DNA of 64,000 bases from Bacteroidota bacterium (GCA_016124755.1 WGNA01000004.1:36826-100825); one strand, 5' to 3'; positions 652 through 42,704 are shown, counted from the first letter of the stretch. The notes: generated by a model from the letters alone, not told the origin. Program-made: numbers and translations.

Positions 652-1226
652 TAAAACGCATTGCCATTTTTGCAAGTGGAAGCGGATCTAATGCCGAAAA
701 TATCATCCGGTATTTTGGGCACAACCCGAAAATTATCTTCACAAAAATTTATTGCAATAAAAAAGGAGCGGGTGTTTTAGAACGAGCCGAAAGGTTAAAA
801 GTAGAAACAACTGTTTTTTCTAAAAGTGAATTCCACGACGGAACCATTTTAAGCGATCTCGAACAAAACCAGACGGACCTGATTATTCTCGCAGGTTTTC
901 TCTGGTTAATACCGCAGGAAATTATTCGGGCATTTGCCGGGCGTATTATTAATATTCATCCTTCCTTATTACCGAAATACGGAGGGAAGGGAATGTACGG
1001 AATGCACGTTCACGAAGCCGTTATTGAAAATAAAGAAACTGAGTCGGGAATAACAATTCATCTGGTAGATGAAGAATACGATCGGGGAGAGGTGTTATTT
1101 CAGGCTAAAACTGCAGTAGAAGAAAAGGATACGCCGGAAATTTTAGCACAAAAAATTCACGAACTTGAATACCGGTTTTTCCCGGAAGTGATTGAGAATT
1201 TTCTTAAAAATAAGTTTAGAGCTTAA
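639..1226 (+). CDS. purN: phosphoribosylglycinamide formyltransferase
   Basis: N-terminal IAIFASGSGSN nucleotide-binding motif and INIHPSLLPKYGG formyl-transfer motif. Length of 195 aa is typical of PurN. Confidence 0.9.
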   Translation: MQRMIKRIAIFASGSGSNAENIIRYFGHNPKIIFTKIYCNKKGAGVLERAERLKVETTVFSKSEFHDGTILSDLEQNQTDLIILAGFLWLIPQEIIRAFAGRIINIHPSLLPKYGGKGMYGMHVHEAVIENKETESGITIHLVDEEYDRGEVLFQAKTAVEEKDTPEILAQKIHELEYRFFPEVIENFLKNKFRA

Positions 1227-1229
1227 TTT

Positions 1230-1576
1230 TTCTCCGTTTGAATGCACCAGGATTGCGAATCGGTTTAAGGATCGATGAACAATCTCTTTTCCTCTCACTT
1301 TTTTCTTGATAAAAAAGTAAGCAAAAAATCAAGTCGGAAAGAAAGCTGCCCAAGCGCCCTTTCTCATTTGTTGAAAATCTGGCGAAAGAAGTGACAAGCA
1401 CTTTCACCGATTTTCTACCAAATGAAAAATTCCCGCCGGGGCTATCCCGCCTTTCCGACGACCCACCCACGCGATCCTATTCTTGATTTGGGATCCGCTT
1501 CGCACAATTCATTTTGTACTTTTTAATACTGAAATGGAAGTGATCCACAGGTTGGTGTAATGAAGAAGAGAAACAT
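1230..1576 (+). repeat. copy 1 of an approximately 345-bp conserved noncoding element; an inverted second copy lies at 31541-31886
   Basis: By-eye alignment with the reverse complement of 31541-31886 matches over essentially the full length, with two short indels and scattered substitutions. Long identical core strings include ttttttcttgaYaaaaaagtaagcaaaaaatcaagtcgg and ccctttctcatttgttgaaaatctggcgaaagaagtgacaagcactttc. Confidence 0.75.
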
Positions 1577-2302
1577 TTAAAGCTTTACCAGTTTTTTAGT
1601 GAACTGTACGCCATCAATCATTGTTCGGATATAATAATTTCCGGCGGGTTGTTCATCAATCTTAAATTCGGTAACCTGGTTTAAGTCTGTCTGAAAGTAT
1701 GATTTGATTTCTACGCCAAGCGAATTGTATACATAAATAGTAGCCCCTTTTTTCTCTCGGATATCAAATCGAACCGAAACTTTATCCGTTGCCGGAGAAG
1801 GATACACCTGAAATAAATTACCCGAAGTATTTCGCTTGAGATCCACCACTGTTTGCGAACTGATTATGTATTTCTGGGGACTACGATAACGGAACGAGGA
1901 TTCGTAAAATTTGTCGCCATTTAAATAGGTTTGGCGTTTCGTATACATATTGAATTGAAGCAACAAAGTGTCTTGGAGATTGAGACTGGGAATTATGGTG
2001 TCCAGCACGCTTGTAATGTTTTTATCCTTCAAAACCCATTAAGTGCTAATGTATTTGTATTGGGCTTCACCAATTTTACGGGTAGAAACAGACATCTCAA
2101 CAACTGACATTTTGGTTATTGCCATGTTGTTTGTATCTCGAATGTTATTGAGATCCAGTTCCAGAAGTTCGTTTTTAGTAGCAACTCCGGGCTCAAGTCC
2201 TATATAACCGTTAAATAATCGACTGAGATATCCGGGACAATTTTGAGCCGGCTGAAAAAACAATAAAAGAAAGAATAAAAAAAAGGGTCGAATTGCACTC
2301 AT
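1577..2302 (-). pseudogene. T9SS C-terminal-domain secreted protein interrupted by one in-frame TAA (ORFs 2039..2302 plus 1577..2032 share a frame)
   Basis: The upstream ORF has a signal peptide (FFLFFLLLFFQPAQNC) but no CTD. The downstream ORF has a type-A T9SS CTD (VYPSPATDKVSV...NYYIRTMIDGVQFTKKLVKL) but no signal peptide and begins at TTG. The stop at 2039-2041 and start at 2030-2032 are 9 nt apart, so both ORFs are in the same frame. Confidence 0.55.
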
Positions 2303-30666: not shown

Positions 30667-31533
30667 TTGAAAGCCGGCTACGGAATTCGGATGATGCTGA
30701 TGGCGAGCCTCGTGTTTGCCGGCGTAAATCTGTGCGTCAAACTCGTTCCGCGAATTCCTGTTTTTGAGATTGTTTTCTTCCGGGCCATGATCTCCTTTCT
30801 ATTAAGTTTTCTGATTCTGAAAAGAAAGAAGTTGCCGGTATTCGGGAATAATAAAAAGGTGCTTTTACTGCGAGGCATTTTCGGAACCTTCGCCCTTATT
30901 TTTTATTTCTACACACTGCATGCAATGCCGTTGGCGTCGGCAATGGTGATACATTATTTGTCGCCGGTTTTCACAGCAACCATTGCTCATTTTATTCTAA
31001 AGGAAAAGCTGCAACTGCGACACGTCTTTTTCTTTCTCATCAGTTTTGCCGGTGTATTTATGATGAAAGGATTTGATGCGCGACTTTCCTGGAGTGATGT
31101 TACCATTGGGGTTTTATCTGCGTTGGCGAGTGGTGCTGCGTACAATTGTATCCGATGGCTGAAATTCACAGAAGACAGCAACGTAATAATTCTCTATTTT
31201 CCGATGGTGGCTTTTCCGATTACCTTTATTCTGATGATGGCCAGCACCGGATTTATAATTCCCGAATGGAACGAGCTGGGTTTATTGCTGCTGATCGGAG
31301 TTCTCACCCAAATAGCGCAATATTTTCTCACCCGGGCTTATCAATCGGAGTCGGCAAATAAGGTTGCAGCTGTAACCAATGTTGGTGTGGTTTACGCTTT
31401 ATTGATCGGCTATTTTGTTTTCGCCGAAACGTTCACAATCAACAGTCTGGCGGGAATGGCGTTAGTGATGATCGGGGTTTTGCTGAATATTTTCTGGAAA
31501 CCGAAGAGGAACTTAGAGAAATCGTCGGCTTAA
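30667..31533 (+). CDS. EamA/DMT-family transporter
   Basis: About 10 TM helices arranged as two EamA-like halves. The true start may be the internal MMLMASLV. Confidence 0.7.
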   Translation: MKAGYGIRMMLMASLVFAGVNLCVKLVPRIPVFEIVFFRAMISFLLSFLILKRKKLPVFGNNKKVLLLRGIFGTFALIFYFYTLHAMPLASAMVIHYLSPVFTATIAHFILKEKLQLRHVFFFLISFAGVFMMKGFDARLSWSDVTIGVLSALASGAAYNCIRWLKFTEDSNVIILYFPMVAFPITFILMMASTGFIIPEWNELGLLLLIGVLTQIAQYFLTRAYQSESANKVAAVTNVGVVYALLIGYFVFAETFTINSLAGMALVMIGVLLNIFWKPKRNLEKSSA

Positions 31534-31540
31534 AAGGGCC

Positions 31541-31886
31541 ATTTATTAAATGTTTCTCCACTTCCTTACACCAGCTTGTGGATTATTATTAAATAGAACA
31601 AAATGAATTGTGCGAATTGGAACCTAAAACAAGAATTGGAAAGCGTGGGTGGGCAGTCGGTAAGGCGGGATAGTGTCATTTGGTGGAAAATCGGGGAAAG
31701 TGCTTGTCACTTCTTTCGCCAGATTTTCAACAAATGAGAAAGGGTTAGGCAGCTTTTTTCCGACTTGATTTTTTGCTTACTTTTTTGTCAAGAAAAAAGT
31801 GGGAAGACAAGAGATTGCTCATCGAACCCCAACCAATTTACAATCAAGGTGTATCCAAACGGAGAAGCATTCTTTATTATTCAAAA
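31541..31886 (-). repeat. copy 2 (inverted) of the approximately 345-bp conserved noncoding element
   Basis: The reverse complement aligns with 1230-1576 over its full length. Conserved core and flanking strings are shared (ttctccgtttgRatRcacc ... cgcacaattcattttgt ... ggagaaacattta). Confidence 0.75.
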
Positions 31887-31925
31887 TTCCCGATTGTTTA
31901 CCGGTCATTAATCAAATCGATACTT

Positions 31926-32675
31926 CTATGATTTAACAAATCTAAGAGTTTGAAAAGTCGAATCCGACCAGATCTTAAGTATAAAAATTCCTTTATTCAA
32001 AGACGAAACATCAATTGAATTATTTTTCTCGTCCAGCACACAGGTTAATAACAACTTTCCATTCAAATCGTAAGTCTCACAAATGGATGATCCGATTCGG
32101 GTAGATTCAAAATCAATATGAAGTGTGTTTATCACCGGATTTGGATAAACCTTCAAAATCTCTGAAATTTCTAAAGAATGGATTGAAACATATTTATGCG
32201 AGCCTATTATACAGCAGGTATTATTGAAGTAAAGACTTACTGAATCTGTTTCATCAAAAAGTGGTAAAAGGTTTGGCGGAGCATTTGGTGGCGGAGGAGT
32301 AAAAGAGTAAAACTCCTGAACACAGAATTTAACATTGTCTACATCGTTTGTTCCCTTCATTTTAAATACAATCGATGTTTTCAAACTATCTCCGGGATTT
32401 AGTTGTCTTGAATAGGGCCTCACAACAGGCAACATGCGCCAACCACCAAAATTTAGAGTTATTGAATACATATCGTTTGGGGAAATTGTATCCAGACCAA
32501 GATTTTTTATTCTAAGAATACAACTGTCGAAACCCGGACTGGTGAAAATATGATTACTTGCCGGACTATCAATGGAAATTGCCATATCGCAAAAACGATG
32601 GTTTTGACAAGAGGCTGAATTAGTCAAACCGAAAAATATACAAAACAATAAGCCAATCCCAATTTGATTCTTCAT
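31926..32675 (-). CDS. T9SS C-terminal-domain secreted protein
   Basis: Signal peptide plus CTD (KVYPNPVINTLHIDF...GIFILKIWSDSTFQTLRFVKS). Confidence 0.6.
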   Translation of the reverse strand: MKNQIGIGLLFCIFFGLTNSASCQNHRFCDMAISIDSPASNHIFTSPGFDSCILRIKNLGLDTISPNDMYSITLNFGGWRMLPVVRPYSRQLNPGDSLKTSIVFKMKGTNDVDNVKFCVQEFYSFTPPPPNAPPNLLPLFDETDSVSLYFNNTCCIIGSHKYVSIHSLEISEILKVYPNPVINTLHIDFESTRIGSSICETYDLNGKLLLTCVLDEKNNSIDVSSLNKGIFILKIWSDSTFQTLRFVKS

Positions 32676-32681
32676 AGGTTG

Positions 32682-33458
32682 TTAGTTGGTTACAACAAAT
32701 GTATTTTGAAATCTCAAACCGTTAAGTTCGGTGATTAGATAATAGACACCTGGCAACAGATTGTTAACCGGAACAACAAAGTTCTGATCGCTGCCTGAAA
32801 CATTTGTAACCGTGATGATTTGATCATTTACAGAATATAATTTAAAGGACGGAATTACATTGGGATCGACATTCTGAAGATGGATATTAAGACCATCAGA
32901 ACCACTGGAAAGCATATTGGGATTTAGTGAAACAGAAGGCAGAAATGGAAGTTTTAATTTATCAACTGAACTTGAATAATTGTGTCTCAGCAAAATATAG
33001 TAGGGGTACATCTGGCTACTATCAATCGTTGCTCTTATAACCGGGCTCCCATTATTTCTATCGCAGGTAAAGTATGAACACAAAAGGAACAATTTAAAAT
33101 GATATGTATGATGATCGTTGGTCCAATTAACACCTATGGAATCCGAAAACACCTCTGAAGAATCTCCGGGTATAATTGTTTTTCCAACTTTAACTCTTCC
33201 AATTACTTCCTTATAAGGTCCCAGAATTTCATGTGAAATAATATACGTGAAGGAGTCTGTGGAATAAATTGTATCCTTTCCATAATTGTAGAAACGAAAT
33301 GAAACAGGAATCTGAGCTGGAGAAACAAAAAGGTCTTCTGGTTTTGGATTAATGAACCTGTAACCAATGTTAACCTGTCTTATTTGACCAAGAGCGGAAC
33401 ATATAAAACCTTCTGCAAAACATAACAAAATAAAAATTCTTAAAATAATGTGTTTCAT
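32682..33458 (-). CDS. T9SS C-terminal-domain secreted protein (tandem paralog-like)
   Basis: Signal peptide plus CTD-like tail (ITVTNVSGSDQNF...PGVYYLITELNGLRFQNTFVVTN). Confidence 0.55.
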   Translation of the reverse strand: MKHIILRIFILLCFAEGFICSALGQIRQVNIGYRFINPKPEDLFVSPAQIPVSFRFYNYGKDTIYSTDSFTYIISHEILGPYKEVIGRVKVGKTIIPGDSSEVFSDSIGVNWTNDHHTYHFKLFLLCSYFTCDRNNGSPVIRATIDSSQMYPYYILLRHNYSSSVDKLKLPFLPSVSLNPNMLSSGSDGLNIHLQNVDPNVIPSFKLYSVNDQIITVTNVSGSDQNFVVPVNNLLPGVYYLITELNGLRFQNTFVVTN

Positions 33459-33775
33459 TCGATTAATTGGAGTCTTCTAAGATACGTTGGTGAATGTGGT
33501 TTATTACATCAATATTCTAACTCAGACATTGAAATGCGTTTTTGCTGAAAAATTATATGCCCATCATAGAATAGAGGCTGGCAGGAGAAAATTCTTCGGG
33601 GTATATCACGCCCGCAACCTATAAGCTAAAGCCCCAAAGATTAGTATTCGAAAACGTATGATTTAGAGAGTGCCAAAAAACGGATCGGCATCAGAATAAC
33701 ATGAAGTCACTTATTCCCAAAACATAAAAAGGCCACCTCTTTCGAAGCAGCCTTGGGGCAGGGCAAAAGATGGGT

Positions 33776-34201
33776 TTAGCGTTTATAATTATAATTGAAC
33801 TTTTTACCGTTGGTCTCGAATTCTGTTTTTAGATCCGTTTCCGTGAGCGAAGTGATGTTCATTAAAACCGGATTACTTGTGCCGGTAAACGTGAGTGCAT
33901 ACTGACTTGAATCAGAGCCGGTGAATGCATAATTTCCTACCACTTCCCAGTTGCCGTTGCTTAGAAAAAAGAAAACTCCATCCTCGCTGTAAAGGTATTG
34001 TCCGGTACCATTACTCGTTTTTAAAGCTCCGTTTTCATACGTTTCATCAAGAGTCCAGGTTTGTGCGAATTTTTCGATCGTAGACATTTCAGCCGGAGGA
34101 TTGTTCGTGTCGGTTGTAGTTTTTTTAACCGGTGTTTCGTCTTTGCAGGAAACCAGAATCAATAAAATTCCCGCAAGAAATAATGTGTAAGATTTAGTCA
34201 T
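33776..34201 (-). CDS. lipocalin-like lipoprotein
   Basis: Lipobox LILVSC after the internal Met MTKSYTLFLAGILL. Size is about 140 aa with a Thr/Gly-rich beta-type composition. Confidence 0.45.
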   Translation of the reverse strand: MTKSYTLFLAGILLILVSCKDETPVKKTTTDTNNPPAEMSTIEKFAQTWTLDETYENGALKTSNGTGQYLYSEDGVFFFLSNGNWEVVGNYAFTGSDSSQYALTFTGTSNPVLMNITSLTETDLKTEFETNGKKFNYNYKR

Positions 34202-34337
34202 AATGATAATTGTCTTTTGAACTAAAGAGCTTTTCAATGCGAATTGTGTGGTATGTTTAAACCGGCATTTGACGAGACTTGTGACGACTGATAAACTGAT
34301 TGTGACCAACAACCCGAAACCGGTGACTAACGACGAA

Positions 34338-35042
34338 TTATTTTTCGCTTAACAGTTTGAGCACTTTTTCCCGATACGTTCGTCCGATCGGAAGTTGCCC
34401 CGAATTTTTAAGATTTACGGTAGTTGCTGCCAACGATTCTATTTGGCGGGTATTGATGAGATAAGATTTATGAATGGGTAAAAACAACGGTTCCGGGAGC
34501 ATTTTTAAAACGGCTTTTAAGGCATACCGAACAATTAACGTTTTATCATTTTTTAGATGAAGCCTTGAATAATTCTGCATTCCGGAGATGTAAATAATGT
34601 CTTCAAAATTTACCTTCCGATGTTTGCCATCGCTTTTCAGAAACAAGAAATCCCGAACGGTTGATTTGTCATTTATTGTCTGGAATTCTTTTAATGCCTT
34701 GTTCGCCGCATCGTAAAAACGCCCAAACGAAACCGGTTTTAAGAGATAATCAACCGCATTTACCTCGTAACTTTCTAAAGCAAATTCCTGATACGCCGTG
34801 ATGAAAATTACCATAGGAAAATTGATCAGCTCTGATTTTAAAATCTCCATTCCGGAAGTTCCCGGCATCTCGATATCCATAAAAATCAAATCGATATTTC
34901 CTTGTTTTAAGCATTCCATCATTTCATCGGTGTTTGATGAAAATCCCATAAAATCCAAAAAAGAAATTTTGTCGATAAATGTCTTAATCCCTTTGCGGGC
35001 AATGGGTTCGTCGTCAACCACAAGACATCTTATCTTATGCAT
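34338..35042 (-). CDS. LytTR-family response regulator
   Basis: Receiver domain (VVDDEP, DLIFMDIEMPG, K near position 104) plus a C-terminal LytTR DNA-binding domain. It overlaps the upstream HK gene by 8 nt. Confidence 0.85.
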   Translation of the reverse strand: MHKIRCLVVDDEPIARKGIKTFIDKISFLDFMGFSSNTDEMMECLKQGNIDLIFMDIEMPGTSGMEILKSELINFPMVIFITAYQEFALESYEVNAVDYLLKPVSFGRFYDAANKALKEFQTINDKSTVRDFLFLKSDGKHRKVNFEDIIYISGMQNYSRLHLKNDKTLIVRYALKAVLKMLPEPLFLPIHKSYLINTRQIESLAATTVNLKNSGQLPIGRTYREKVLKLLSEK

Positions 35043-36081
35043 CTGTATTTATTTTAATGCGAATGGAAGTTGAATAAACGTCGTTAATTCTCCCGTGTTT
35101 TAAAGACGCATCATCACCGTAAATTAGTTGCAAACGTTTTCGGAGATTTGATAATCCCAAACCTCCGGAGGATTTGTCGGAAAAGGTTTTTTCTCCGCAA
35201 TTATTTTGAACTTTATAAATCAGATGCCCGTCTTCGCTTTTTAAGTTGATTCGAATAAAACCATCAGCATCGCCCGGTGAATACTTAAAGGCATTTTCTA
35301 CAGGAATAATTAACAGCATCGGCGCGATCTTGAGGTCAGGGAAATCCTCAAATTGACTTTCTATTCGAAAACCAACTTCTTTTCGCACCTGCTGAATGCG
35401 GATGTATTTTTTGAGATATTCAATTTCGGAACGTACCGAAACCCTGTCTTGAGAACCTTCATATAGCTGATACCTCAGAATTTCAGAAAAATCGTGAATG
35501 AGTTTTCGGGCGGTTGCATTTTGTTCATCAATGGAGAAATGAATGTTGTTGAGTGTGTTAAAAATGAAATGCGGATTAATCTGCGCTTTCAGAAATTTGA
35601 GTTCGGTTGCAATCTGCTCCTTTTCCAATTCCTCTTTTTGTCTTTTGGCAAGCAATAATTTTTCGCGATACGAAGCCACGGTAAAACCAATTAATCCGAA
35701 TGCGACAACAAGATAGCTGTCGAAAATCTGGTAACTTAAAGTGTCGAATATGGACAAGAAATGTTCGTTCATCGCACCCGTAGTCATATAAATCAAACGA
35801 TGAAATTCTTTTAGAACAAACACGCCCGATACAAACAACAGCGCACCGGATGATGCCCAAAGGAAGTTTTTAATCCACTGTTTTTGGAGTAAAGTAATCC
35901 TGATTTGTGCGCGCTGATACGTTATAAAAATCAGCGAACAAACCAGAATATCGGAAATCGAATTGAAAATAATCTGAAGGATCTGCATTACCTCGAAATC
36001 CGTTCGGAACGCAAACCGATACGTAATAAAAATGATGAACAGAAGTAAACCGGTTTTAAGACCGCGACGAAATGATTGCAT
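35035..36081 (-). CDS. LytS/YehU-type sensor histidine kinase
   Basis: N-terminal TM helices, His_kinase motif FLKAQINPHFIFNTLNNIHF, and HATPase G-boxes (SGGLGLSNL). Confidence 0.8.
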   Translation of the reverse strand: MQSFRRGLKTGLLLFIIFITYRFAFRTDFEVMQILQIIFNSISDILVCSLIFITYQRAQIRITLLQKQWIKNFLWASSGALLFVSGVFVLKEFHRLIYMTTGAMNEHFLSIFDTLSYQIFDSYLVVAFGLIGFTVASYREKLLLAKRQKEELEKEQIATELKFLKAQINPHFIFNTLNNIHFSIDEQNATARKLIHDFSEILRYQLYEGSQDRVSVRSEIEYLKKYIRIQQVRKEVGFRIESQFEDFPDLKIAPMLLIIPVENAFKYSPGDADGFIRINLKSEDGHLIYKVQNNCGEKTFSDKSSGGLGLSNLRKRLQLIYGDDASLKHGRINDVYSTSIRIKINTDA

Positions 36082-36248
36082 TGATTACAAATCTATTCAT
36101 CCGTTTTTGAACCTGACCGACGAGTCAAATCGTTGGTCAGCGGATTTAAGTCGTTGGTCACATAAAGCTCAATTCCAATAATCGAATTTGTGAAATATTT
36201 ATCGTCGGAATTGAGCCATATTGATTTATTGGAAAGTCCGGATAATTT

Positions 36249-37091
36249 TTATCGATGATTGCCAGCAAGAATTAATTTATTCAAGACGTCTCTTATTTCA
36301 TTTTTAATCACTTCGTTGGTTCCTCTTATGTATCCATGATGTGTATACACTATGTCACCGTTGGAGGCACAGATTACTACACTTGGATAAGACCGCACAC
36401 CCAAATTTTTACTGAACTCAGGCGAGAGAGCTATTTGAGGGCAGAAATCTGTTTTAAATTGTATCGCCTCGTTCCAGGTGTCTTCCGGGTTTAGTGCCAG
36501 AAATCCAACCGAAGATTGGTACTCCTCGCAAAGTTCATTGAGTACTTCGTCTATCTCCAATTTACAATAAGCACAGTTTTTTGTCCAGGAAATTAAAACA
36601 AACGGCTTATTTAATAAGGTTGAAAGCACAATAGAGGAGTCAGTATTCGTCTGTATCCGCTGATCCTCAAGGTTACCAAGAATTAGTTTATTCTTACCCT
36701 TGTTGGATAAATAAAAAGGCAAATAAAGATTTAAAACTATGGATAGGCCAATTCCAGAACTGATGAATAATATTTTTCCTCTGGTACTAACCTGAGGGAC
36801 TAAAACCCCAATCAACGAAAAAACAAAAACGGATAAACCAATATACCAAAGTTGCAATCTCACGGAAAGGACAAAAACCAGGAAGGCCAATGGAAAAAGC
36901 GCATACGCGATTTTATCGGAAGTGTATAGTTCTCCCACCAACCATTTGGTGATAAATCCGAATAAAATAGAGAAAATAAAGAAGGCGATTATAATATTTC
37001 CCTCGGAAGTCTGCCACATCAGGAAGGCGTCATTGCCAATCAAACAAACCAGTCCTAATAAAGATATTTGTGTAAATCGACGGTAGTTCAT
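36249..37091 (-). CDS. membrane-anchored thioredoxin-fold (TlpA/ResA-like) thiol-disulfide oxidoreductase
   Basis: About 4 N-terminal TM helices followed by a thioredoxin-like domain with a CxxC site (SWTKNCAYCK). Confidence 0.55.
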   Translation of the reverse strand: MNYRRFTQISLLGLVCLIGNDAFLMWQTSEGNIIIAFFIFSILFGFITKWLVGELYTSDKIAYALFPLAFLVFVLSVRLQLWYIGLSVFVFSLIGVLVPQVSTRGKILFISSGIGLSIVLNLYLPFYLSNKGKNKLILGNLEDQRIQTNTDSSIVLSTLLNKPFVLISWTKNCAYCKLEIDEVLNELCEEYQSSVGFLALNPEDTWNEAIQFKTDFCPQIALSPEFSKNLGVRSYPSVVICASNGDIVYTHHGYIRGTNEVIKNEIRDVLNKLILAGNHR

Positions 37092-37099
37092 ATTTGTTC

Positions 37100-37768
37100 T
37101 TAATCAATTCCTTGATCCGGATTCGGGTTTAAGGCATCATGTTCGCACATCCCATCACACGGCCAAATGGCCATAAATCCGCATCCCATACTTGAACCAT
37201 CGCATTGCGATTGGGCACAATAGGAACCGAAAAATTGGCAGGCCCCAAACACAGAACCGCGATTACAACCACATGGAGGAGCATTATTCCCACCAGAACC
37301 GTTGCCTCCATTTATAATGTAAGGATCTTGATTATCTAAGTCGTACAAGTTTAAAAAAATAGCAGTACCCAGAACATTACCGATAATGTCTTTATTCGAG
37401 TTGAACCAACTTACCGCAGTATAGAGCCGGAATGAATCAGATTCTGAGCTTGTCCAATCAAATATTTTGGTATTTAAAAGTGGAAGTAAAGAATTGATGG
37501 AATTTTTAACCGAGTCTGCTACCAAATTGCTATTAAGGCAATGGTTCATCTTGTCAATCCATAGTGCATATCTACCTTCCGGAGTTAGATTTCGCAATTC
37601 ATTCCGCACTTCCTCCATGGACATGTTCTGTAAATAAGTGCGACTTGCAGGAGTAACCGATTCATTAGAAAATCCCAAAATATTAGCAGGACCTTCCTCC
37701 CTTTTTTCACTTTCAGAGCAAGCCATGAGCAGGGTAAAAATAGCAAGAGATAAAATTAATTTTTTCAT
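37100..37768 (-). CDS. lipoprotein with Gly/Asn-rich linker and C-terminal 8-cysteine module
   Basis: Lipobox LLMACS, linker INGGNGSGGNNAPP, then CGCNRGSVFGACQFFGSYCAQSQCDGSSMGCGFMAIWPCDGMCEHD. It lies 8 nt upstream of the thioredoxin-fold gene. Confidence 0.6.
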   Translation of the reverse strand: MKKLILSLAIFTLLMACSESEKREEGPANILGFSNESVTPASRTYLQNMSMEEVRNELRNLTPEGRYALWIDKMNHCLNSNLVADSVKNSINSLLPLLNTKIFDWTSSESDSFRLYTAVSWFNSNKDIIGNVLGTAIFLNLYDLDNQDPYIINGGNGSGGNNAPPCGCNRGSVFGACQFFGSYCAQSQCDGSSMGCGFMAIWPCDGMCEHDALNPNPDQGID

Positions 37769-38153
37769 GTTAAATTTTTTTTGATAAAGAAAGATCGTTC
37801 ATCTCCTTTATTAATCATTTACCTGTTTGGAAAAAACTCAACGCCGTATTTTTTATACTGAACGCCGTCTTGAGATCAAAACTTTAACATTGATGATGCT
37901 GTATTCACCATCCCTGAATGTAACTTTAGCATTTACAAAAAAAAAGGTTCTTAGTAATACGTGATTTTAACTAAGCACTCTTGTTGTTGGTGTTATCAAC
38001 ACAAAACCGGACAATTGAACTCCGACCTGATTGCATAAGGAAATCAAACTTATTGGAATAGCTGGAGGTGATAACACCTTACGCGGGAACGTTAGCGATT
38101 AATTTACTCTTCTTGGGAATAAATTAAACATAGCTGCATTAGGACATATCAAC

Positions 38154-40817
38154 TCAATTCGAACTCACTACATTCGGGATATCGCCTTTGCCAATATTGA
38201 GATCTTCGCTCGCTTCTTCTTCTTTAAATTCCATCACGAGTTTCAGTGCATCCGGAACCACATCGCTGCACAAAACAATCAGGCTGCCTTCGGTTGCATT
38301 GCGGATGGCGTATGTAATTGCTTCCCGTTCGCTTGGAATGATATTGATCTTTTTATTCGGATCCACATCGATGATTCCGGCTTTTAACATGGCAATTAAT
38401 TCCTCTTCTGTTTTGCCACGCAGATTTTTATCCTGACGAATAATTACCTCATCAAACATTCGCGCGGCAATGCGTCCCATTTCGTTATTGTCTTCTTCGC
38501 GACGGTCACCGATTCCTGCAATGATCCCGACTTTCGGATGGCCTTCCATCTTATCGACAAACTGTTGAAGCGCTCTCATACCAGCCGGATTGTGCGCATA
38601 ATCGAGCAAAACAGTGAACTTTTTAAACCGGAACAAATTCAATCTTCCGGGAGTTTGTGATGCTGACGGAATAAAGGATTCGAGAGCAGCCCGGATATCA
38701 TGAAGTGAAAATCCACGAACGTACGCCGCCAACACAGCGGGCAAAACATTCTGAATCATAAACACAGCTTTGCCTTCGTAGGTGATCGGGATGTTCACCA
38801 CTTTGGAAACCCGCATCTTCCATTCACCTTTACAAATCGTAACATATCCGTTTTCATATATCGCCGAAAGTCCGCCGACCTTCATCATGGATTTGATATG
38901 CGGATTATTTTCGTCTAATGAGAACAGCGCAACATTGCACTGAACGTTCTTTCTCATCGCATACACCAGTTCGTCGTCGGCATTGAGAATGGCATAACCA
39001 TCGGGCAAAACAGTTTCTGGAATTACCCCTTTCACCCGTGCTAATTGTTCGATGGTCTGAATACCTTTTAAGCCGAGATGATCTGCTGCCACATTGGTTA
39101 CAATGCCGACATCGCAGTGATGAAAACCAAGTCCGGCGCGCAATAAACCCCCGCGCGCGCATTCAAGTACCGCGAAATCAACGGTCGGATCTTTTAGCAC
39201 AAATTCGGCACTTGCAGGTCCGGTGCAATCGCCACTCATCATCAATTGATTCTGTATATATACACCATCGCTGGTTGTGTAACCGACACGATATCCTTTT
39301 AGTCGTGCCATGTGAGCAATGAGTCTCGACGTGGTTGTTTTTCCATTGGTTCCGGTAATGGCAACAATGGGAATCCGGGCATTGGAGCCTGCCGGAAACA
39401 ACATGTCGATCACGTTGCCGGCGACATTTCTCGGCAAACCGGAAGTGGGAGCGAGGTGCATCCGGAAACCGGGACCGGCATTCACTTCGAGAACAGCTCC
39501 TCCTGTAACTTTCAGTGGTTCTGAAATATTGGTTGTTGAAATATCGATTCCACAGATGTCGAGGTCGATGATTTTGGAAATACGTTCGGCCATAAAGGCA
39601 ATGCTCGGATGCACAAAGTCGGTAACATCTTCAGCGGTTCCACCGGTGCTGAGGTTCGCCGTGTCTTTCAGATACAGAATTCTGCCTTCTTCTAAAACGT
39701 CATTCAGCGTAACACCCGCAGCTTTCAGCAGATTTTCGGTGAGTTCGTTTACTGTGATCATGGTCAGTACTTTCTCGTGACCGTAACCGCGTCGCGGATC
39801 GCTGTTCACTTTATCGATTAATTGCTGAACCGTTGATTTTCCGTCGCCGACAACATTTGCCGGAGTTCGTTTGGCAGCCGCAACTAATTTGTTGTCGATA
39901 ACTAAAAGACGGTAATCATCTCCTTTAATATAGCGTTCGACCATTACACTGTTCGACACCTTTTTTGCCGCTTCGAAACCTTTCAGTGCTTCTTCCATGG
40001 AGCGGATATTCACGGTGATTCCTCTTCCGTGATTTCCGTCGAGCGGTTTGGTAACTACCGGAAATCCGAGGGATTCCACCACTTCCTTCAATCCTCTTTC
40101 TGTGCGGATTAATTCGCCTCTTGGAACGGGAACTTCCGCCTGATCCAATAAGTATTTTGTATCTTCTTTATCGCAGGCAATCTCAACTCCGATGCTGCTC
40201 GTCTGACTGGTTACAGTTGCCTGAATGCGTTTCTGATTGGCTCCGTATCCCAATTGACAAAGTGAATATTTATTGAGCCGGATCCAGGGAATTCCGCGAC
40301 TTGCCGCTTCTTCGACAATACTGGCAGTTGACGGTCCGAGTCTTTCAGCTTCGCGGATTTCCCGCATTTCCTGAATGTCGGCCGCCAAATCATATTCGGT
40401 TCCTTTTATTAATGCTTCACAAATTCTAACAGAAGATTGGGCCGCAAATCTTCCAACTTTTTGTTCTTCGTAAGCAAACACAACATGATAAACTCCGTGT
40501 TCTCCATAACCGCGGGTTCTTCCAAAACCAACGTCCATTCCTGCGAGTGTCTGAATTTCCAAAGCGATATGTTCGATCACATGGCCCATCCAGGTTCCTT
40601 CTTTAACGCGTTTGAAAAAACCACCGGGTTCACCTTCACTACAGCGGTGTTCGTACATCGAAGGGAACATCGCAACGAGCCGGTCATAAAAACCATCCAC
40701 CTTATCTGAAGGATAATCTTCCATTTCTTCGAGGTCGAGAGTCATTACGATTAACTTGTGTCTTCTCACAGACCAGTAATTTGGTCCGTTCATTACGTTT
40801 ATTTCCCGGATGCGCAT
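38154..40817 (-). CDS. cphA: cyanophycin synthetase
   Basis: Characteristic N-terminus MRIREINVMNGPNYWS, an ATP-grasp region, a Mur-ligase-like domain (GTNGKTTT), and a length of 887 aa. Confidence 0.9.
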   Translation of the reverse strand: MRIREINVMNGPNYWSVRRHKLIVMTLDLEEMEDYPSDKVDGFYDRLVAMFPSMYEHRCSEGEPGGFFKRVKEGTWMGHVIEHIALEIQTLAGMDVGFGRTRGYGEHGVYHVVFAYEEQKVGRFAAQSSVRICEALIKGTEYDLAADIQEMREIREAERLGPSTASIVEEAASRGIPWIRLNKYSLCQLGYGANQKRIQATVTSQTSSIGVEIACDKEDTKYLLDQAEVPVPRGELIRTERGLKEVVESLGFPVVTKPLDGNHGRGITVNIRSMEEALKGFEAAKKVSNSVMVERYIKGDDYRLLVIDNKLVAAAKRTPANVVGDGKSTVQQLIDKVNSDPRRGYGHEKVLTMITVNELTENLLKAAGVTLNDVLEEGRILYLKDTANLSTGGTAEDVTDFVHPSIAFMAERISKIIDLDICGIDISTTNISEPLKVTGGAVLEVNAGPGFRMHLAPTSGLPRNVAGNVIDMLFPAGSNARIPIVAITGTNGKTTTSRLIAHMARLKGYRVGYTTSDGVYIQNQLMMSGDCTGPASAEFVLKDPTVDFAVLECARGGLLRAGLGFHHCDVGIVTNVAADHLGLKGIQTIEQLARVKGVIPETVLPDGYAILNADDELVYAMRKNVQCNVALFSLDENNPHIKSMMKVGGLSAIYENGYVTICKGEWKMRVSKVVNIPITYEGKAVFMIQNVLPAVLAAYVRGFSLHDIRAALESFIPSASQTPGRLNLFRFKKFTVLLDYAHNPAGMRALQQFVDKMEGHPKVGIIAGIGDRREEDNNEMGRIAARMFDEVIIRQDKNLRGKTEEELIAMLKAGIIDVDPNKKINIIPSEREAITYAIRNATEGSLIVLCSDVVPDALKLVMEFKEEEASEDLNIGKGDIPNVVSSN

Positions 40818-40895
40818 AGACGATAAAATTGAATTGTACCTTTGAAGCCGGTAATTTAATCAAATTATCCGCTGATTATTAGCGCAAAAGATTGT

Positions 40896-41768
40896 ATGAC
40901 GGATCGCACAAAAAGAGGGAAATTAATACCGATTGGAGGGAACGAAGACAAAGGGGCAGGAACGGATGAGAACTATACATTGGATTTTGTACAGCAGGGA
41001 ATTCTCTCGCATGTGGTTCGAGAAAGCGGTGGAGTAGATGCAAAAATTCTTGTGGTTCCAACCGCTTCCAGTATACCGGAAGAAGTTGGAGAAAATTATC
41101 AGGAAGCATTTGCAATTCTGGGTTGCAGCGATGTTCGTGTAATTCATATTCGAAAAAAAGGAGAATCGGATCAACCGGAATTTCTTCACTTGTTGCAGGA
41201 AGCAGATTGTGTGATGTTCACCGGTGGGGATCAATCCCGAATTTCCCGGCGAATCGGAGGTTCCGAATTTTTCAGAATCATGTTAGACCGGCACCTGAAC
41301 GACGAGCTTAATATAGCCGGAACCAGTGCAGGAGCAATGGCGATGGCTCTTGAAATGATTGCCGGAGGAAGCAGTACCGAAGCGTTTTTTAAAGGTGCGG
41401 TACAAATGAAAAAAGGACTCGGTCTTCTTCCCAAACTCATTATTGATACGCACTTTATTCAACGCGGTAGATTCGGAAGATTAACTGAAGCAGTTGCCCG
41501 TCACCCGCATTGTTTGGGATTCGGATTGGCCGAAGATACCGGACTTATAATTAAGGAAGGCCGATACGCCAAAGTGATCGGTTCCGGGATGGTGATTGTG
41601 ATCGACCCATCCGGAATTACGCACAACAACGATAAAATTCTCAAAGACGGAACACCAATGACCCTGATAGGTCTGAACACGCATATTCTGTCGAACGGTG
41701 ATACGATCGACCTTGAAACAAGAGCAGCCAAAGCACTCCCGATGCACGATAAATTTGAATGGGCTTAG
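40896..41768 (+). CDS. cphB: cyanophycinase (peptidase S51)
   Basis: IPIGGNEDK N-terminal block and S51 fold in 290 aa. The gene is divergent from cphA. Confidence 0.85.
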   Translation: MTDRTKRGKLIPIGGNEDKGAGTDENYTLDFVQQGILSHVVRESGGVDAKILVVPTASSIPEEVGENYQEAFAILGCSDVRVIHIRKKGESDQPEFLHLLQEADCVMFTGGDQSRISRRIGGSEFFRIMLDRHLNDELNIAGTSAGAMAMALEMIAGGSSTEAFFKGAVQMKKGLGLLPKLIIDTHFIQRGRFGRLTEAVARHPHCLGFGLAEDTGLIIKEGRYAKVIGSGMVIVIDPSGITHNNDKILKDGTPMTLIGLNTHILSNGDTIDLETRAAKALPMHDKFEWA

Positions 41769-42704
41769 TTAAATCCAGTCTTCGTAGATCGCAACCTTCG
41801 ATTCTGATGAAGTTCGGTAAGCTCGATACATTCCTTCCGTATTAAAAGGAAGAGAAACATTTCCGTTCGCATCAACAGCGACCAGACCACCATCTCCTTC
41901 AATTTTAATCAGTCTCTTATTAATTACTAATTCGGAAGCTTCGGCTAAAGACAATCCTCCGAACTCCATTGCAGCTGAGACATCATACGCAACGACTCCC
42001 CGTATAAAATATTCACCGCTTCCGGTGCAGGAAACAGCGCAGGTATTGTTGTTGGCATACGTTCCGGCTCCAATAATTGGTGAGTCTCCGATGCGACCGA
42101 ATTTCTTGTTGGTCATGCCGCCGGTTGAAGTTGCGGCAGCCAGATTTCCGTTTAAATCGAGGGCTACGGCACCAACAGTTCCGAACTTTCCTTCGGGATT
42201 GATGCTGTGGTCTAATTGAACAACATCCGATTCACGGGCTTTCTGCCATTGGTTGTAGCGGAGTTCATTATAAAAGTAGGAGGGAGGAAGAAACTCGTAA
42301 CCCTGAGATCTCGCGAATTCCATTGCACCTTCCCCGGCGAGTATTACATGACCTGATTTCTCCATCACATCCCGGGCAAGTTGAACCGGATTCCGGATTC
42401 CGGTAACCATAGAAACGGCTCCGGCATTTCTGGATTTGCCTTCCATAATAGAAGCATCCATTTCATGCGTTCCGTTCGCTGTGAAAACACTGCCTTTTCC
42501 GGCGTTAAAGAGAGGAGAGTCTTCCAGAATTTTTACGCATTCAATTACAGCATCCAATGCAGAGCCACCGCTTTCAACGATGTAAAAGGCAGTGTCTCTT
42601 GCCTCAGATAAGGTAAGAATGTATTTCTCCTCTTCAGCTTTCGGGAGAAAGCCGCGTCGAAGAGTACCGGCGCCACCATGCAATGCAACAGCGACGGACT
42701 TCAT
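41769..42704 (-). CDS. iaaA: isoaspartyl dipeptidase / plant-type L-asparaginase (Ntn hydrolase)
   Basis: ALHGGAGT N-terminus and autoproteolytic nucleophile site GTVGAVALD, followed by a GAGT.. block. Confidence 0.85.
   Translation of the reverse strand: MKSVAVALHGGAGTLRRGFLPKAEEEKYILTLSEARDTAFYIVESGGSALDAVIECVKILEDSPLFNAGKGSVFTANGTHEMDASIMEGKSRNAGAVSMVTGIRNPVQLARDVMEKSGHVILAGEGAMEFARSQGYEFLPPSYFYNELRYNQWQKARESDVVQLDHSINPEGKFGTVGAVALDLNGNLAAATSTGGMTNKKFGRIGDSPIIGAGTYANNNTCAVSCTGSGEYFIRGVVAYDVSAAMEFGGLSLAEASELVINKRLIKIEGDGGLVAVDANGNVSLPFNTEGMYRAYRTSSESKVAIYEDWI

Follow-up and report, generated by a model that had tools for sequence, protein, structure and literature searches.

Two inverted repeats in a Bacteroidota genome as probable copies of a non-autonomous transposon that carries a widespread, covarying hairpin module

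Two stretches of intergenic DNA about 30 kb apart in a Bacteroidota genome are alike over some 345 bp and lie in opposite orientations, and the question that they raise is what kind of sequence has been repeated here. They could be genes for a structured RNA, copies of a mobile element, a substrate for inversion of the DNA between them or the related 3' untranslated regions of duplicated genes, all of which were mentioned in an earlier note on the window, that is, the whole 64-kb stretch of DNA that was analysed.

The two repeats, referred to below as copies A and B, are homologous over their whole length once one of them is reverse-complemented (blastn E 2.4e-69 for a piece of 299 nt, together with a second piece), just as the earlier note had reported, and a MAFFT global alignment of the refined elements contains 282 identities, 41 substitutions and 30 gap columns, giving 87% identity over aligned bases. 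Copy A is taken to be oriented as the strand that reads TTTTTTCTTGAT. Both copies exist where they had been placed, with the qualification that the second had been given as 31541-31886, which is ~15 nt too long at one end, and its refined limits are 31549-31871 (Table 1). The perfectly conserved blocks that had been quoted are also present, namely a 49-nt block at 1357-1405 in A and 31696-31744 in B, a 42-nt block at 1299-1340 in copy A that is interrupted by a single Y, and TTCGCACAATTCATTTTGT, which is identical at 1499-1517 and 31598-31616. Identity between A and B is clustered moderately beyond chance, with runs of at least 49 and at least 30 nt found in 134 of 20000 permutations of the substitutions (p ~0.007); the excess conservation of the core is modest and gene conversion could account for part of it.

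The copy number within the 64-kb window is two, a third copy being found neither by blastn nor by an nhmmer profile search nor by a pattern search with three mismatches. Searches of wider collections were made with words specific to the core of the element: an exact-word scan of the GTDB species representatives with a 19-mer returned 35 matches of 20-28 nt, all of them due to chance, a 24-mer had no match in an exact-word scan of the JGI metagenomes, and there was none for core words in an exact-word scan of plasmids or for two core words and the pattern of the terminal inverted repeats (TIRs) in IMG/VR. Phages searched with blastn gave no match to the element, and nor did a protein-word search for copies miscalled as genes, for which a spurious ORF of 84 aa served as the query. 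In the source sample, SRR10063241, three short-read contigs (Logan) end inside both copies at the perfectly conserved blocks, breaks which arise because the copies are a repeat and so interrupt the assembly.

All four termini of A and B begin with AATKYTTCTCY, followed by ..TACACC..TGTGGA, and form imperfect terminal inverted repeats of ~30 bp in both copies. Just outside these ends 8 bp are directly repeated on either side of both copies, as TAGAGCTT and TAAAGCTT for copy A and, in the orientation of the element, TAATAAAG and TAATAAAT for copy B. The same boundary rule yields an 8-bp duplication in both copies, and a match of at least 7/8 at such a spacing has a chance of ~0.001 per pair, as estimated empirically from random positions in the window. 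The duplications match at only 7/8 positions in either copy, and this imperfection is a point against reading the repeats as transposon copies. The lack of any ORF of note, which had been remarked on before, holds true, with internal ORFs of at most 84 aa, none of them conserved between the copies, and frames that are broken between A and B by indels of 1, 3, 14 and 11 nt. There is no transposase or recombinase gene in the 64-kb window and the enzyme must therefore act in trans; a transposase with ends matching AATKYTTCTCY was found neither in the window nor in the collections searched, and this, like a count of known copies that stops at two, also speaks against the transposon reading.

Table 1. 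Coordinates of the features discussed in the text (positions are those of the window unless a locus is named)
Feature	Position	Strand	Basis or remark
Left target-site duplication of A, TAGAGCTT	1217..1224	.	7/8 match to 1578-1585
Probable MITE, copy A, 353 bp	1225..1577	+	End-to-end alignment with B; absent from the syntenic site in the relative
Left terminal inverted repeat of A, AATTTTTCTCCGTTTGAATGCACCAGGATTGCGA	1225..1258	+	Reverse-complementary to 1544-1577
Hairpin P1 of module, TCAC-T6 / loop CTTGAT / A6-GTAAG	1295..1321	+	Family-wide covariation
Module tail, CAAAAAATCAAG	1322..1333	+	ATCAAG complementary to P1 loop; loop-tail covariation
Predicted long hairpin P2, closing helix GTCGGAAAG / CTTTCCGAC	1333..1459	+	Single- and two-sequence folds
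Right terminal inverted repeat of A	1544..1577	+	Reverse complement AATGTTTCTCTTCTTCATTACACCAACCTGTGGA matches left end
Right target-site duplication of A, TAAAGCTT	1578..1585	.	Overlaps last codons of T9SS-cargo gene
Target-site duplication of B, ATTTATTA (reverse complement TAATAAAT)	31541..31548	.	7/8 match to 31872-31879
Probable MITE, copy B, 323 bp, inverted relative to A	31549..31871	-	Alignment with A
Predicted long hairpin P2 of copy B, GTCGGAAAA / CTTACCGAC	31656..31764	-	Folds
Module of copy B: P1 31776-31802 (loop CTTGAC) and tail 31764-31775	31764..31802	-	Pattern match, 1 mismatch
Second target-site duplication of B, CTTTATTA (reverse complement TAATAAAG)	31872..31879	.	
Logan contig ends inside the copies	L001 10583-10663; L002 10421-10595; L003 10790-10961		SRR10063241
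Persicobacter sp. JZB09 MITE copies	L047 19951-20370, 27468-27887; L049 1445-1867		Plasmids

The genes around the two copies provide further evidence on how the repeats came to be where they are. Copy A is located between the convergent genes purN and a Por_Secre_tail gene (at 1577-2032) and copy B between convergent EamA, with a stop at 31531-31533 that is 15 nt before the element, and another Por_Secre_tail gene, which agrees with the convergent intergenic setting beside cargo genes of the T9SS that the earlier note had described. At copy A both stop codons straddle the junctions between element and duplication, that of purN at 1224-1226 being TAA made up of the last T of the left duplication and the first two bases (AA) of the element, and that of the T9SS-cargo gene at 1577-1579 being made up of the last base of the element and two bases of the right duplication; were the insertion absent, purN would extend ~5 codons into the 3' end of the T9SS gene.

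The nearest relative accessible is the MAG GCA_020437705.1 (locus L176), in which malate dehydrogenase is 90% identical. The order of genes around purN is the same there (SLT/LysM, DUF4837, purN, convergent Por_Secre_tail, TPR-PD40-OmpA, Metallophos_2, LysE and BNR), the final codons of the T9SS gene are recognisably orthologous to those in the window, and the stops of purN and the T9SS gene abut, TGA being followed directly by TCA with zero intergenic bases. As the stops abut in the relative with the same synteny, the 353-bp copy A is an insertion, and a clean example of one that rewrites the stop codon between two abutting convergent genes. The empty site in the relative is too diverged to show what the target sequence originally was. 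Next to copy A, the T9SS-cargo gene itself seems to be split, with an ORF at 1577-2032 (minus strand, 151 aa, TTG start, Por_Secre_tail) and a separate ORF at 2039-2302 (minus strand, 87 aa) that has a signal-peptide-like start; the orthologues in relatives are called as 180-238 aa, and the split gene may be a pseudogene or the result of a sequencing frameshift.

The site of copy B is uninformative with regard to insertion because the neighbouring genes of the relative differ, EamA having a different downstream neighbour there and the window carrying ~11 kb of extra DNA. This segment, 31880-42704, is lacking in the relative, whose EamA precedes a 126-aa gene and rplT, and it contains two T9SS-cargo-like genes, a LytTR/histidine-kinase pair and thioredoxin-like genes as well as a set of cyanophycin synthetase, cyanophycinase (S51) and isoaspartyl-dipeptidase. 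The segment has the appearance of a variable region or island, and copy B sits at its edge.

Inverted ends, duplications of fixed length on both copies, the lack of coding capacity and a syntenic relative whose corresponding site is empty together identify a non-autonomous transposon of the MITE kind, which bears out one of the two identities that the earlier note had proposed. We therefore regard both repeats as copies of a single non-autonomous DNA transposon, a MITE of ~320-350 bp, with a probability of about 0.8. A transposase encoded elsewhere in the genome would be expected to bind the AATKYTTCTCY ends and to cut the target with an 8-bp stagger, in the manner of DDE-type cut-and-paste enzymes, and copies A and B would have diverged by ~13% since insertion. 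A keyword search of the literature for MITEs or repeats of Bacteroidetes found nothing matching. As a MITE the window element would be ordinary genome furniture, and the interest lies in the module that it contains.

This module consists of a 10-bp hairpin (P1) with the loop CTTGAT, a tail A6TCAAG that is complementary to the loop, and a long hairpin (P2), and it belongs to a widespread family in which covariation is strong. P2 of copy A is 127 nt long, starts at the last base of the tail and holds the 49-nt perfect block, and it is predicted on both strands in single-sequence as well as two-sequence folds. Amongst 71 distinct sequences of the family 7 of the 10 pairs of P1 have compensatory changes and 96.9% of cells are paired, a level of covariation that was reached in none of 500 shuffles and that register shifts came nowhere near. 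The compensatory changes reach into the T6/A6 run, where TTTTGT/ACAAAA and TTTTGG/CCAAAA are found. There is hardly any variation in the loop CTTGAT or in the ATCAAG downstream of it, which are complementary to each other, and the last base of the loop covaries with the first base of the tail, being T/A in 64 sequences and A/T in 6, the latter from at least two lineages. The earlier note had suggested selection on secondary structure rather than on coding, and for the core of the element this suggestion is supported at the level of the family; the pairing it had drawn, cTTTTTTCTTGA with TCAAGtcggAAAAAAg, is not, the pairs that are supported being those of T6 with the first A6 and of the loop CTTGAT with the tail ATCAAG. 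Beyond the tail, a helix that starts within 0-3 nt is present in 78 of 116 distinct members as against 29% of shuffled controls, and closes domains of 28 to ~250 nt.

When copy A was compared with plasmids by blastn only its first perfect block was matched, at 15 places in the replicons of Persicobacter sp. JZB09 and one in Aureibacter tunicatorum. The pattern TTTTTTCTTGATAAAAAA-N5-8-AAAATCAAG occurs on at least 120 metagenome contigs and 4 viral contigs, and a 48-nt consensus was located at 38 places in 8 plasmid or chromid records, including those of Parabacteroides distasonis and of Ilyobacter polytropus, a member of the Fusobacteriota. The replicon pILYOP01 of the latter has 6 module places, so that the family extends outside Bacteroidota. 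Members from Aureibacter, Parabacteroides, Ilyobacter and several metagenome contigs form a sister subfamily with a multi-helix domain and conserved loops, in which one hairpin has compensatory changes in 9 of 14 pairs. The variants in P. distasonis (L175 2500-2700) and I. polytropus pILYOP01 (L174 2500-2700) have the loop CTTGAA and the tail TTCAAG, and are followed by a multi-helix domain with the loops AACTCGCTnCGCTCArACA and CTTAACG, the second of these occurring twice. On A. tunicatorum pAT6 (L045 3001-3235) the module is found between cas7d and cas5d of a type I-D CRISPR-cas operon, where a small hairpin ends ~20 nt before the start codon of cas5d.

The module family is apparently uncatalogued. 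Rfam 15 has no match at the gathering score in the 64-kb window, copy A giving only chance-level hits (E above 1), and nothing relevant was returned for the members from Persicobacter, Aureibacter, Parabacteroides and Ilyobacter at gathering or permissive thresholds (E up to 10); as a positive control the same search recovered a lysine riboswitch at 108.7 bits upstream of lysA in Ilyobacter polytropus (L174 4510-4694). A literature corpus of 8 million papers gave no match when it was searched for four forms of the motif as strings, and those Bacteroidetes motifs of a 2010 survey that were compared either have Rfam models that do not match or were described as restricted to one organism.

The module, or cassette, is not tied to the ends that surround it in the window. 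In non-orthologous copies homology usually begins 1-13 nt before P1 and stops at the foot of the long hairpin, and therefore the cassette exists in a naked state. A shell of TIRs and target-site duplications (TSDs) was detected around 5 of 92 family members, shifted controls giving 2.3, and the majority of members are therefore naked. The minority of lineages that do have a shell of inverted ends and 8-bp duplications, which comprise the window element, an element of Persicobacter and two others, have shells that are unrelated to each other. The Persicobacter sp. JZB09 MITE is ~420 bp long, is present in 15-18 copies with the ends GGCTTTTT(C/T)ATAAAAAGC and the same internal module, and is flanked by 8-bp duplications, AACAAGTG being perfect and the others being ACGCTCAC/ACGCTCTC and TGGATAGG/TGGATATG. 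It resembles the window element in its module, in its 8-bp duplications and in size, and differs in its ends, in the sequence of its long hairpin and in the order of its host (Cytophagales). In Persicobacter the module occurs at 30 places, which is ~2x the number of shells, and so naked and shelled states coexist in one genome. No recurrent neighbour was apparent, as all-against-all blastp around 133 module instances gave no cluster and a Pfam scan of 148 flanking ORFs showed diverse housekeeping families, none of them in more than two members, with no enrichment of transposases, integrases or HUH enzymes.

It is conceivable that the cassette is itself mobile as single-stranded DNA, its hairpin being recognised by an HUH-type enzyme that acts in trans, much as in REP/REPIN-RAYT systems or elements derived from IS200/IS605, and that the shell of TIRs and TSDs is a second, independent vehicle. 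The naked cassettes in non-orthologous contexts, with homology confined to the interval from just before P1 to the foot of the long hairpin, would fit such a mechanism, as would the occurrence of the same cassette inside shells with unrelated ends, an invariant P1 loop on a freely covarying stem, the asymmetry of the strands and the presence of the family across phyla (Ilyobacter). GC-GNA-GC mini-hairpins are also found in the cassette family and GNA triloops are unusually stable in DNA, and CTTGATA is the nick-site core of the rolling-circle Rep proteins of the pC194/phiX174 type, which was counted on the same side. However, no HUH, RAYT, TnpA or other enriched family was encountered among the 148 flanking ORFs, neither a conserved target motif nor a right-end hairpin could be defined for the naked cassette, and the window copies have TIRs and 8-bp duplications, features that HUH transposition does not generate. 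Overall we consider movement of this kind unlikely. For the window copies themselves, membership of the IS200/IS605-derived palindromic elements (PATE) or of the REP-RAYT systems was rejected on the same grounds, since inverted ends and duplications place the element outside both groups.

A broader proposal, which we advance tentatively and would not back at even odds, is that the cassette represents a new class of structured single-stranded nucleic acid, present in many copies and across phyla, which may be either a mobile element recognised via its hairpin or a structured RNA carried along as a passenger by several unrelated MITE families, with the window element as one of its vehicles. As cargo it is worthy of note, with a 45-nt motif in which an invariant loop sits on a freely covarying stem and is followed by a tail complementary to the loop, and after this by complex covarying hairpins. 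Should it prove to be a functional RNA or the site for a mobilising enzyme it would constitute a new widespread class comparable to REP/REPIN or ERIC.

That the repeats are instead paralogous genes for a free-standing structured ncRNA, with the inverted ends as its closing helix, was the other identity offered by the earlier note, and it appears very improbable. Both strands do fold far better than shuffles (z -4.6 and -5.05), the ends of the element pair in every predicted fold and covariation in the module family is strong. Yet an RNA gene would not have made the 8-bp direct repeats that flank both copies or left an empty site in a syntenic relative, and the end helices differ among the lineages that have the module, each with its own duplications, and the unit is bounded by transposon ends. 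Nor was there an Rfam match at E up to 10, or a promoter of the Bacteroidetes type (TTTG ... TAnnTTTG) recognisable by eye on either strand, the closest being a weak near-match, TCATTTTG, at 1509-1516, which faces outward on the C-rich strand.

It would seem scarcely credible, too, that the pair has acted as a recombination substrate to invert the 30-kb segment between the copies, as had been suggested. Perfect runs of 49 and 30 nt, shared here by two inverted copies, are within the range where homologous recombination is possible, but the overall identity of the copies is only 87% and the window has no recombinase gene. Collinearity with the relative, in unchanged orientation, holds to either side of copy B (22.3-31.5 kb and 42.7-51.3 kb) and also across the site of copy A, so the present arrangement of the segment between the copies is the ancestral one. 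The last alternative, that the similarity is simply that of homologous 3' UTRs of duplicated T9SS-cargo genes, which the earlier note had named as an outcome that would undo its finding, can be set aside as refuted, for whilst a Por_Secre_tail gene adjoins each copy, the two cargo proteins are only 25% identical in the sorting domain, where 44 residues align. At copy A the T9SS gene abuts the right end and at copy B it is 46 nt from the left end, so that the element is oppositely oriented relative to each, and no such sequence is found downstream of the orthologous T9SS gene of the relative.

For the cassette as cargo of a MITE, several independent lines of evidence point to its G-rich strand, complementary to the one reading TTTTTTCTTGAT, as the relevant one. 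Amongst the mismatches in P1, C.A outnumber T.G by ~10 to 2. In 5 subfamilies it is the G-rich strand that gives the more stable consensus fold, and for the window pair the energy is -66 kcal/mol there compared with -50 kcal/mol on the other strand, with all 12 of 12 substitutions within predicted pairs keeping the pairing, ten of them via G.U; this evidence from folding is supportive and not decisive, because RNAalifold favours compatible pairs. The mini-hairpin of the sister subfamily displays GNA triloops and an alternation of U.G and C-G on the G-rich strand, and the gene that flanks the cassette on the G-rich side is co-oriented with it in 61 cases as against 31. In the window the T9SS-cargo gene, whose end falls in the final base of the element, has the same sense as the G-rich strand of A, and EamA, which ends 15 nt before the element, has the same sense as the G-rich strand of B, the + strand of the window. 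In conflict with this evidence, it is on the C-rich strand that the loop-tail pseudoknot would be sterically comfortable.

The cassette might thus be envisaged as working as a folded single strand on the G-rich strand, possibly co-transcribed as a structure in the 3' UTR that would end or stabilise the upstream transcript; such a structure could allow insertions between convergent genes to be tolerated and favour the persistence of the element. In all members the G-rich strand has the U-run (C)UUGAUUUUUU directly behind the long hairpin, which weakly suggests a role at transcript ends; in the fold this run is also able to pair with purines in a tract that lies past the small hairpin. A plain intrinsic terminator was considered as the general explanation and rejected; a short GC hairpin directly precedes the U-run in just 8 of 122 family members and a terminator scan of copy A called none, and a plain terminator is therefore an insufficient description.

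Finally, the element and its cassette can be compared with systems that are already known. With intrinsic terminators the cassette has in common a hairpin followed by a U-run on the G-rich strand and a site between convergent genes, but its hairpin is usually the long-range closing helix of a 100-200-nt domain and there is a second conserved hairpin past the U-run, which terminators do not need. The likeness to REP/REPIN and ERIC/BIME is that of dispersed hairpin-forming intergenic repeats, often downstream of genes, in which a conserved motif lies beside a variable palindrome and a strand bias with respect to flanking genes is observed. In contrast to REP/REPIN the window unit is much longer, has TIRs and duplications and was seen with no RAYT gene, and the cassette lacks the GTAG/CGTC tags that have been described for REP elements (PMC3733652). 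Close to the window element as a whole are bacterial MITEs such as the Correia elements of Neisseria and the MITEs of Porphyromonas gingivalis (PMC4596501), which are likewise small and intergenic, have TIRs and duplications and no transposase, and form a long hairpin once transcribed. The window element differs in that it duplicates 8 bp and has ends, AATKYTTCTCY, that match nothing in the searches. Furthermore it is most conserved in its interior and not at its ends, and this interior is a cassette that it shares with unrelated shells and with naked copies in other phyla. The target-site duplication again sets it apart from Correia elements, which duplicate TA.
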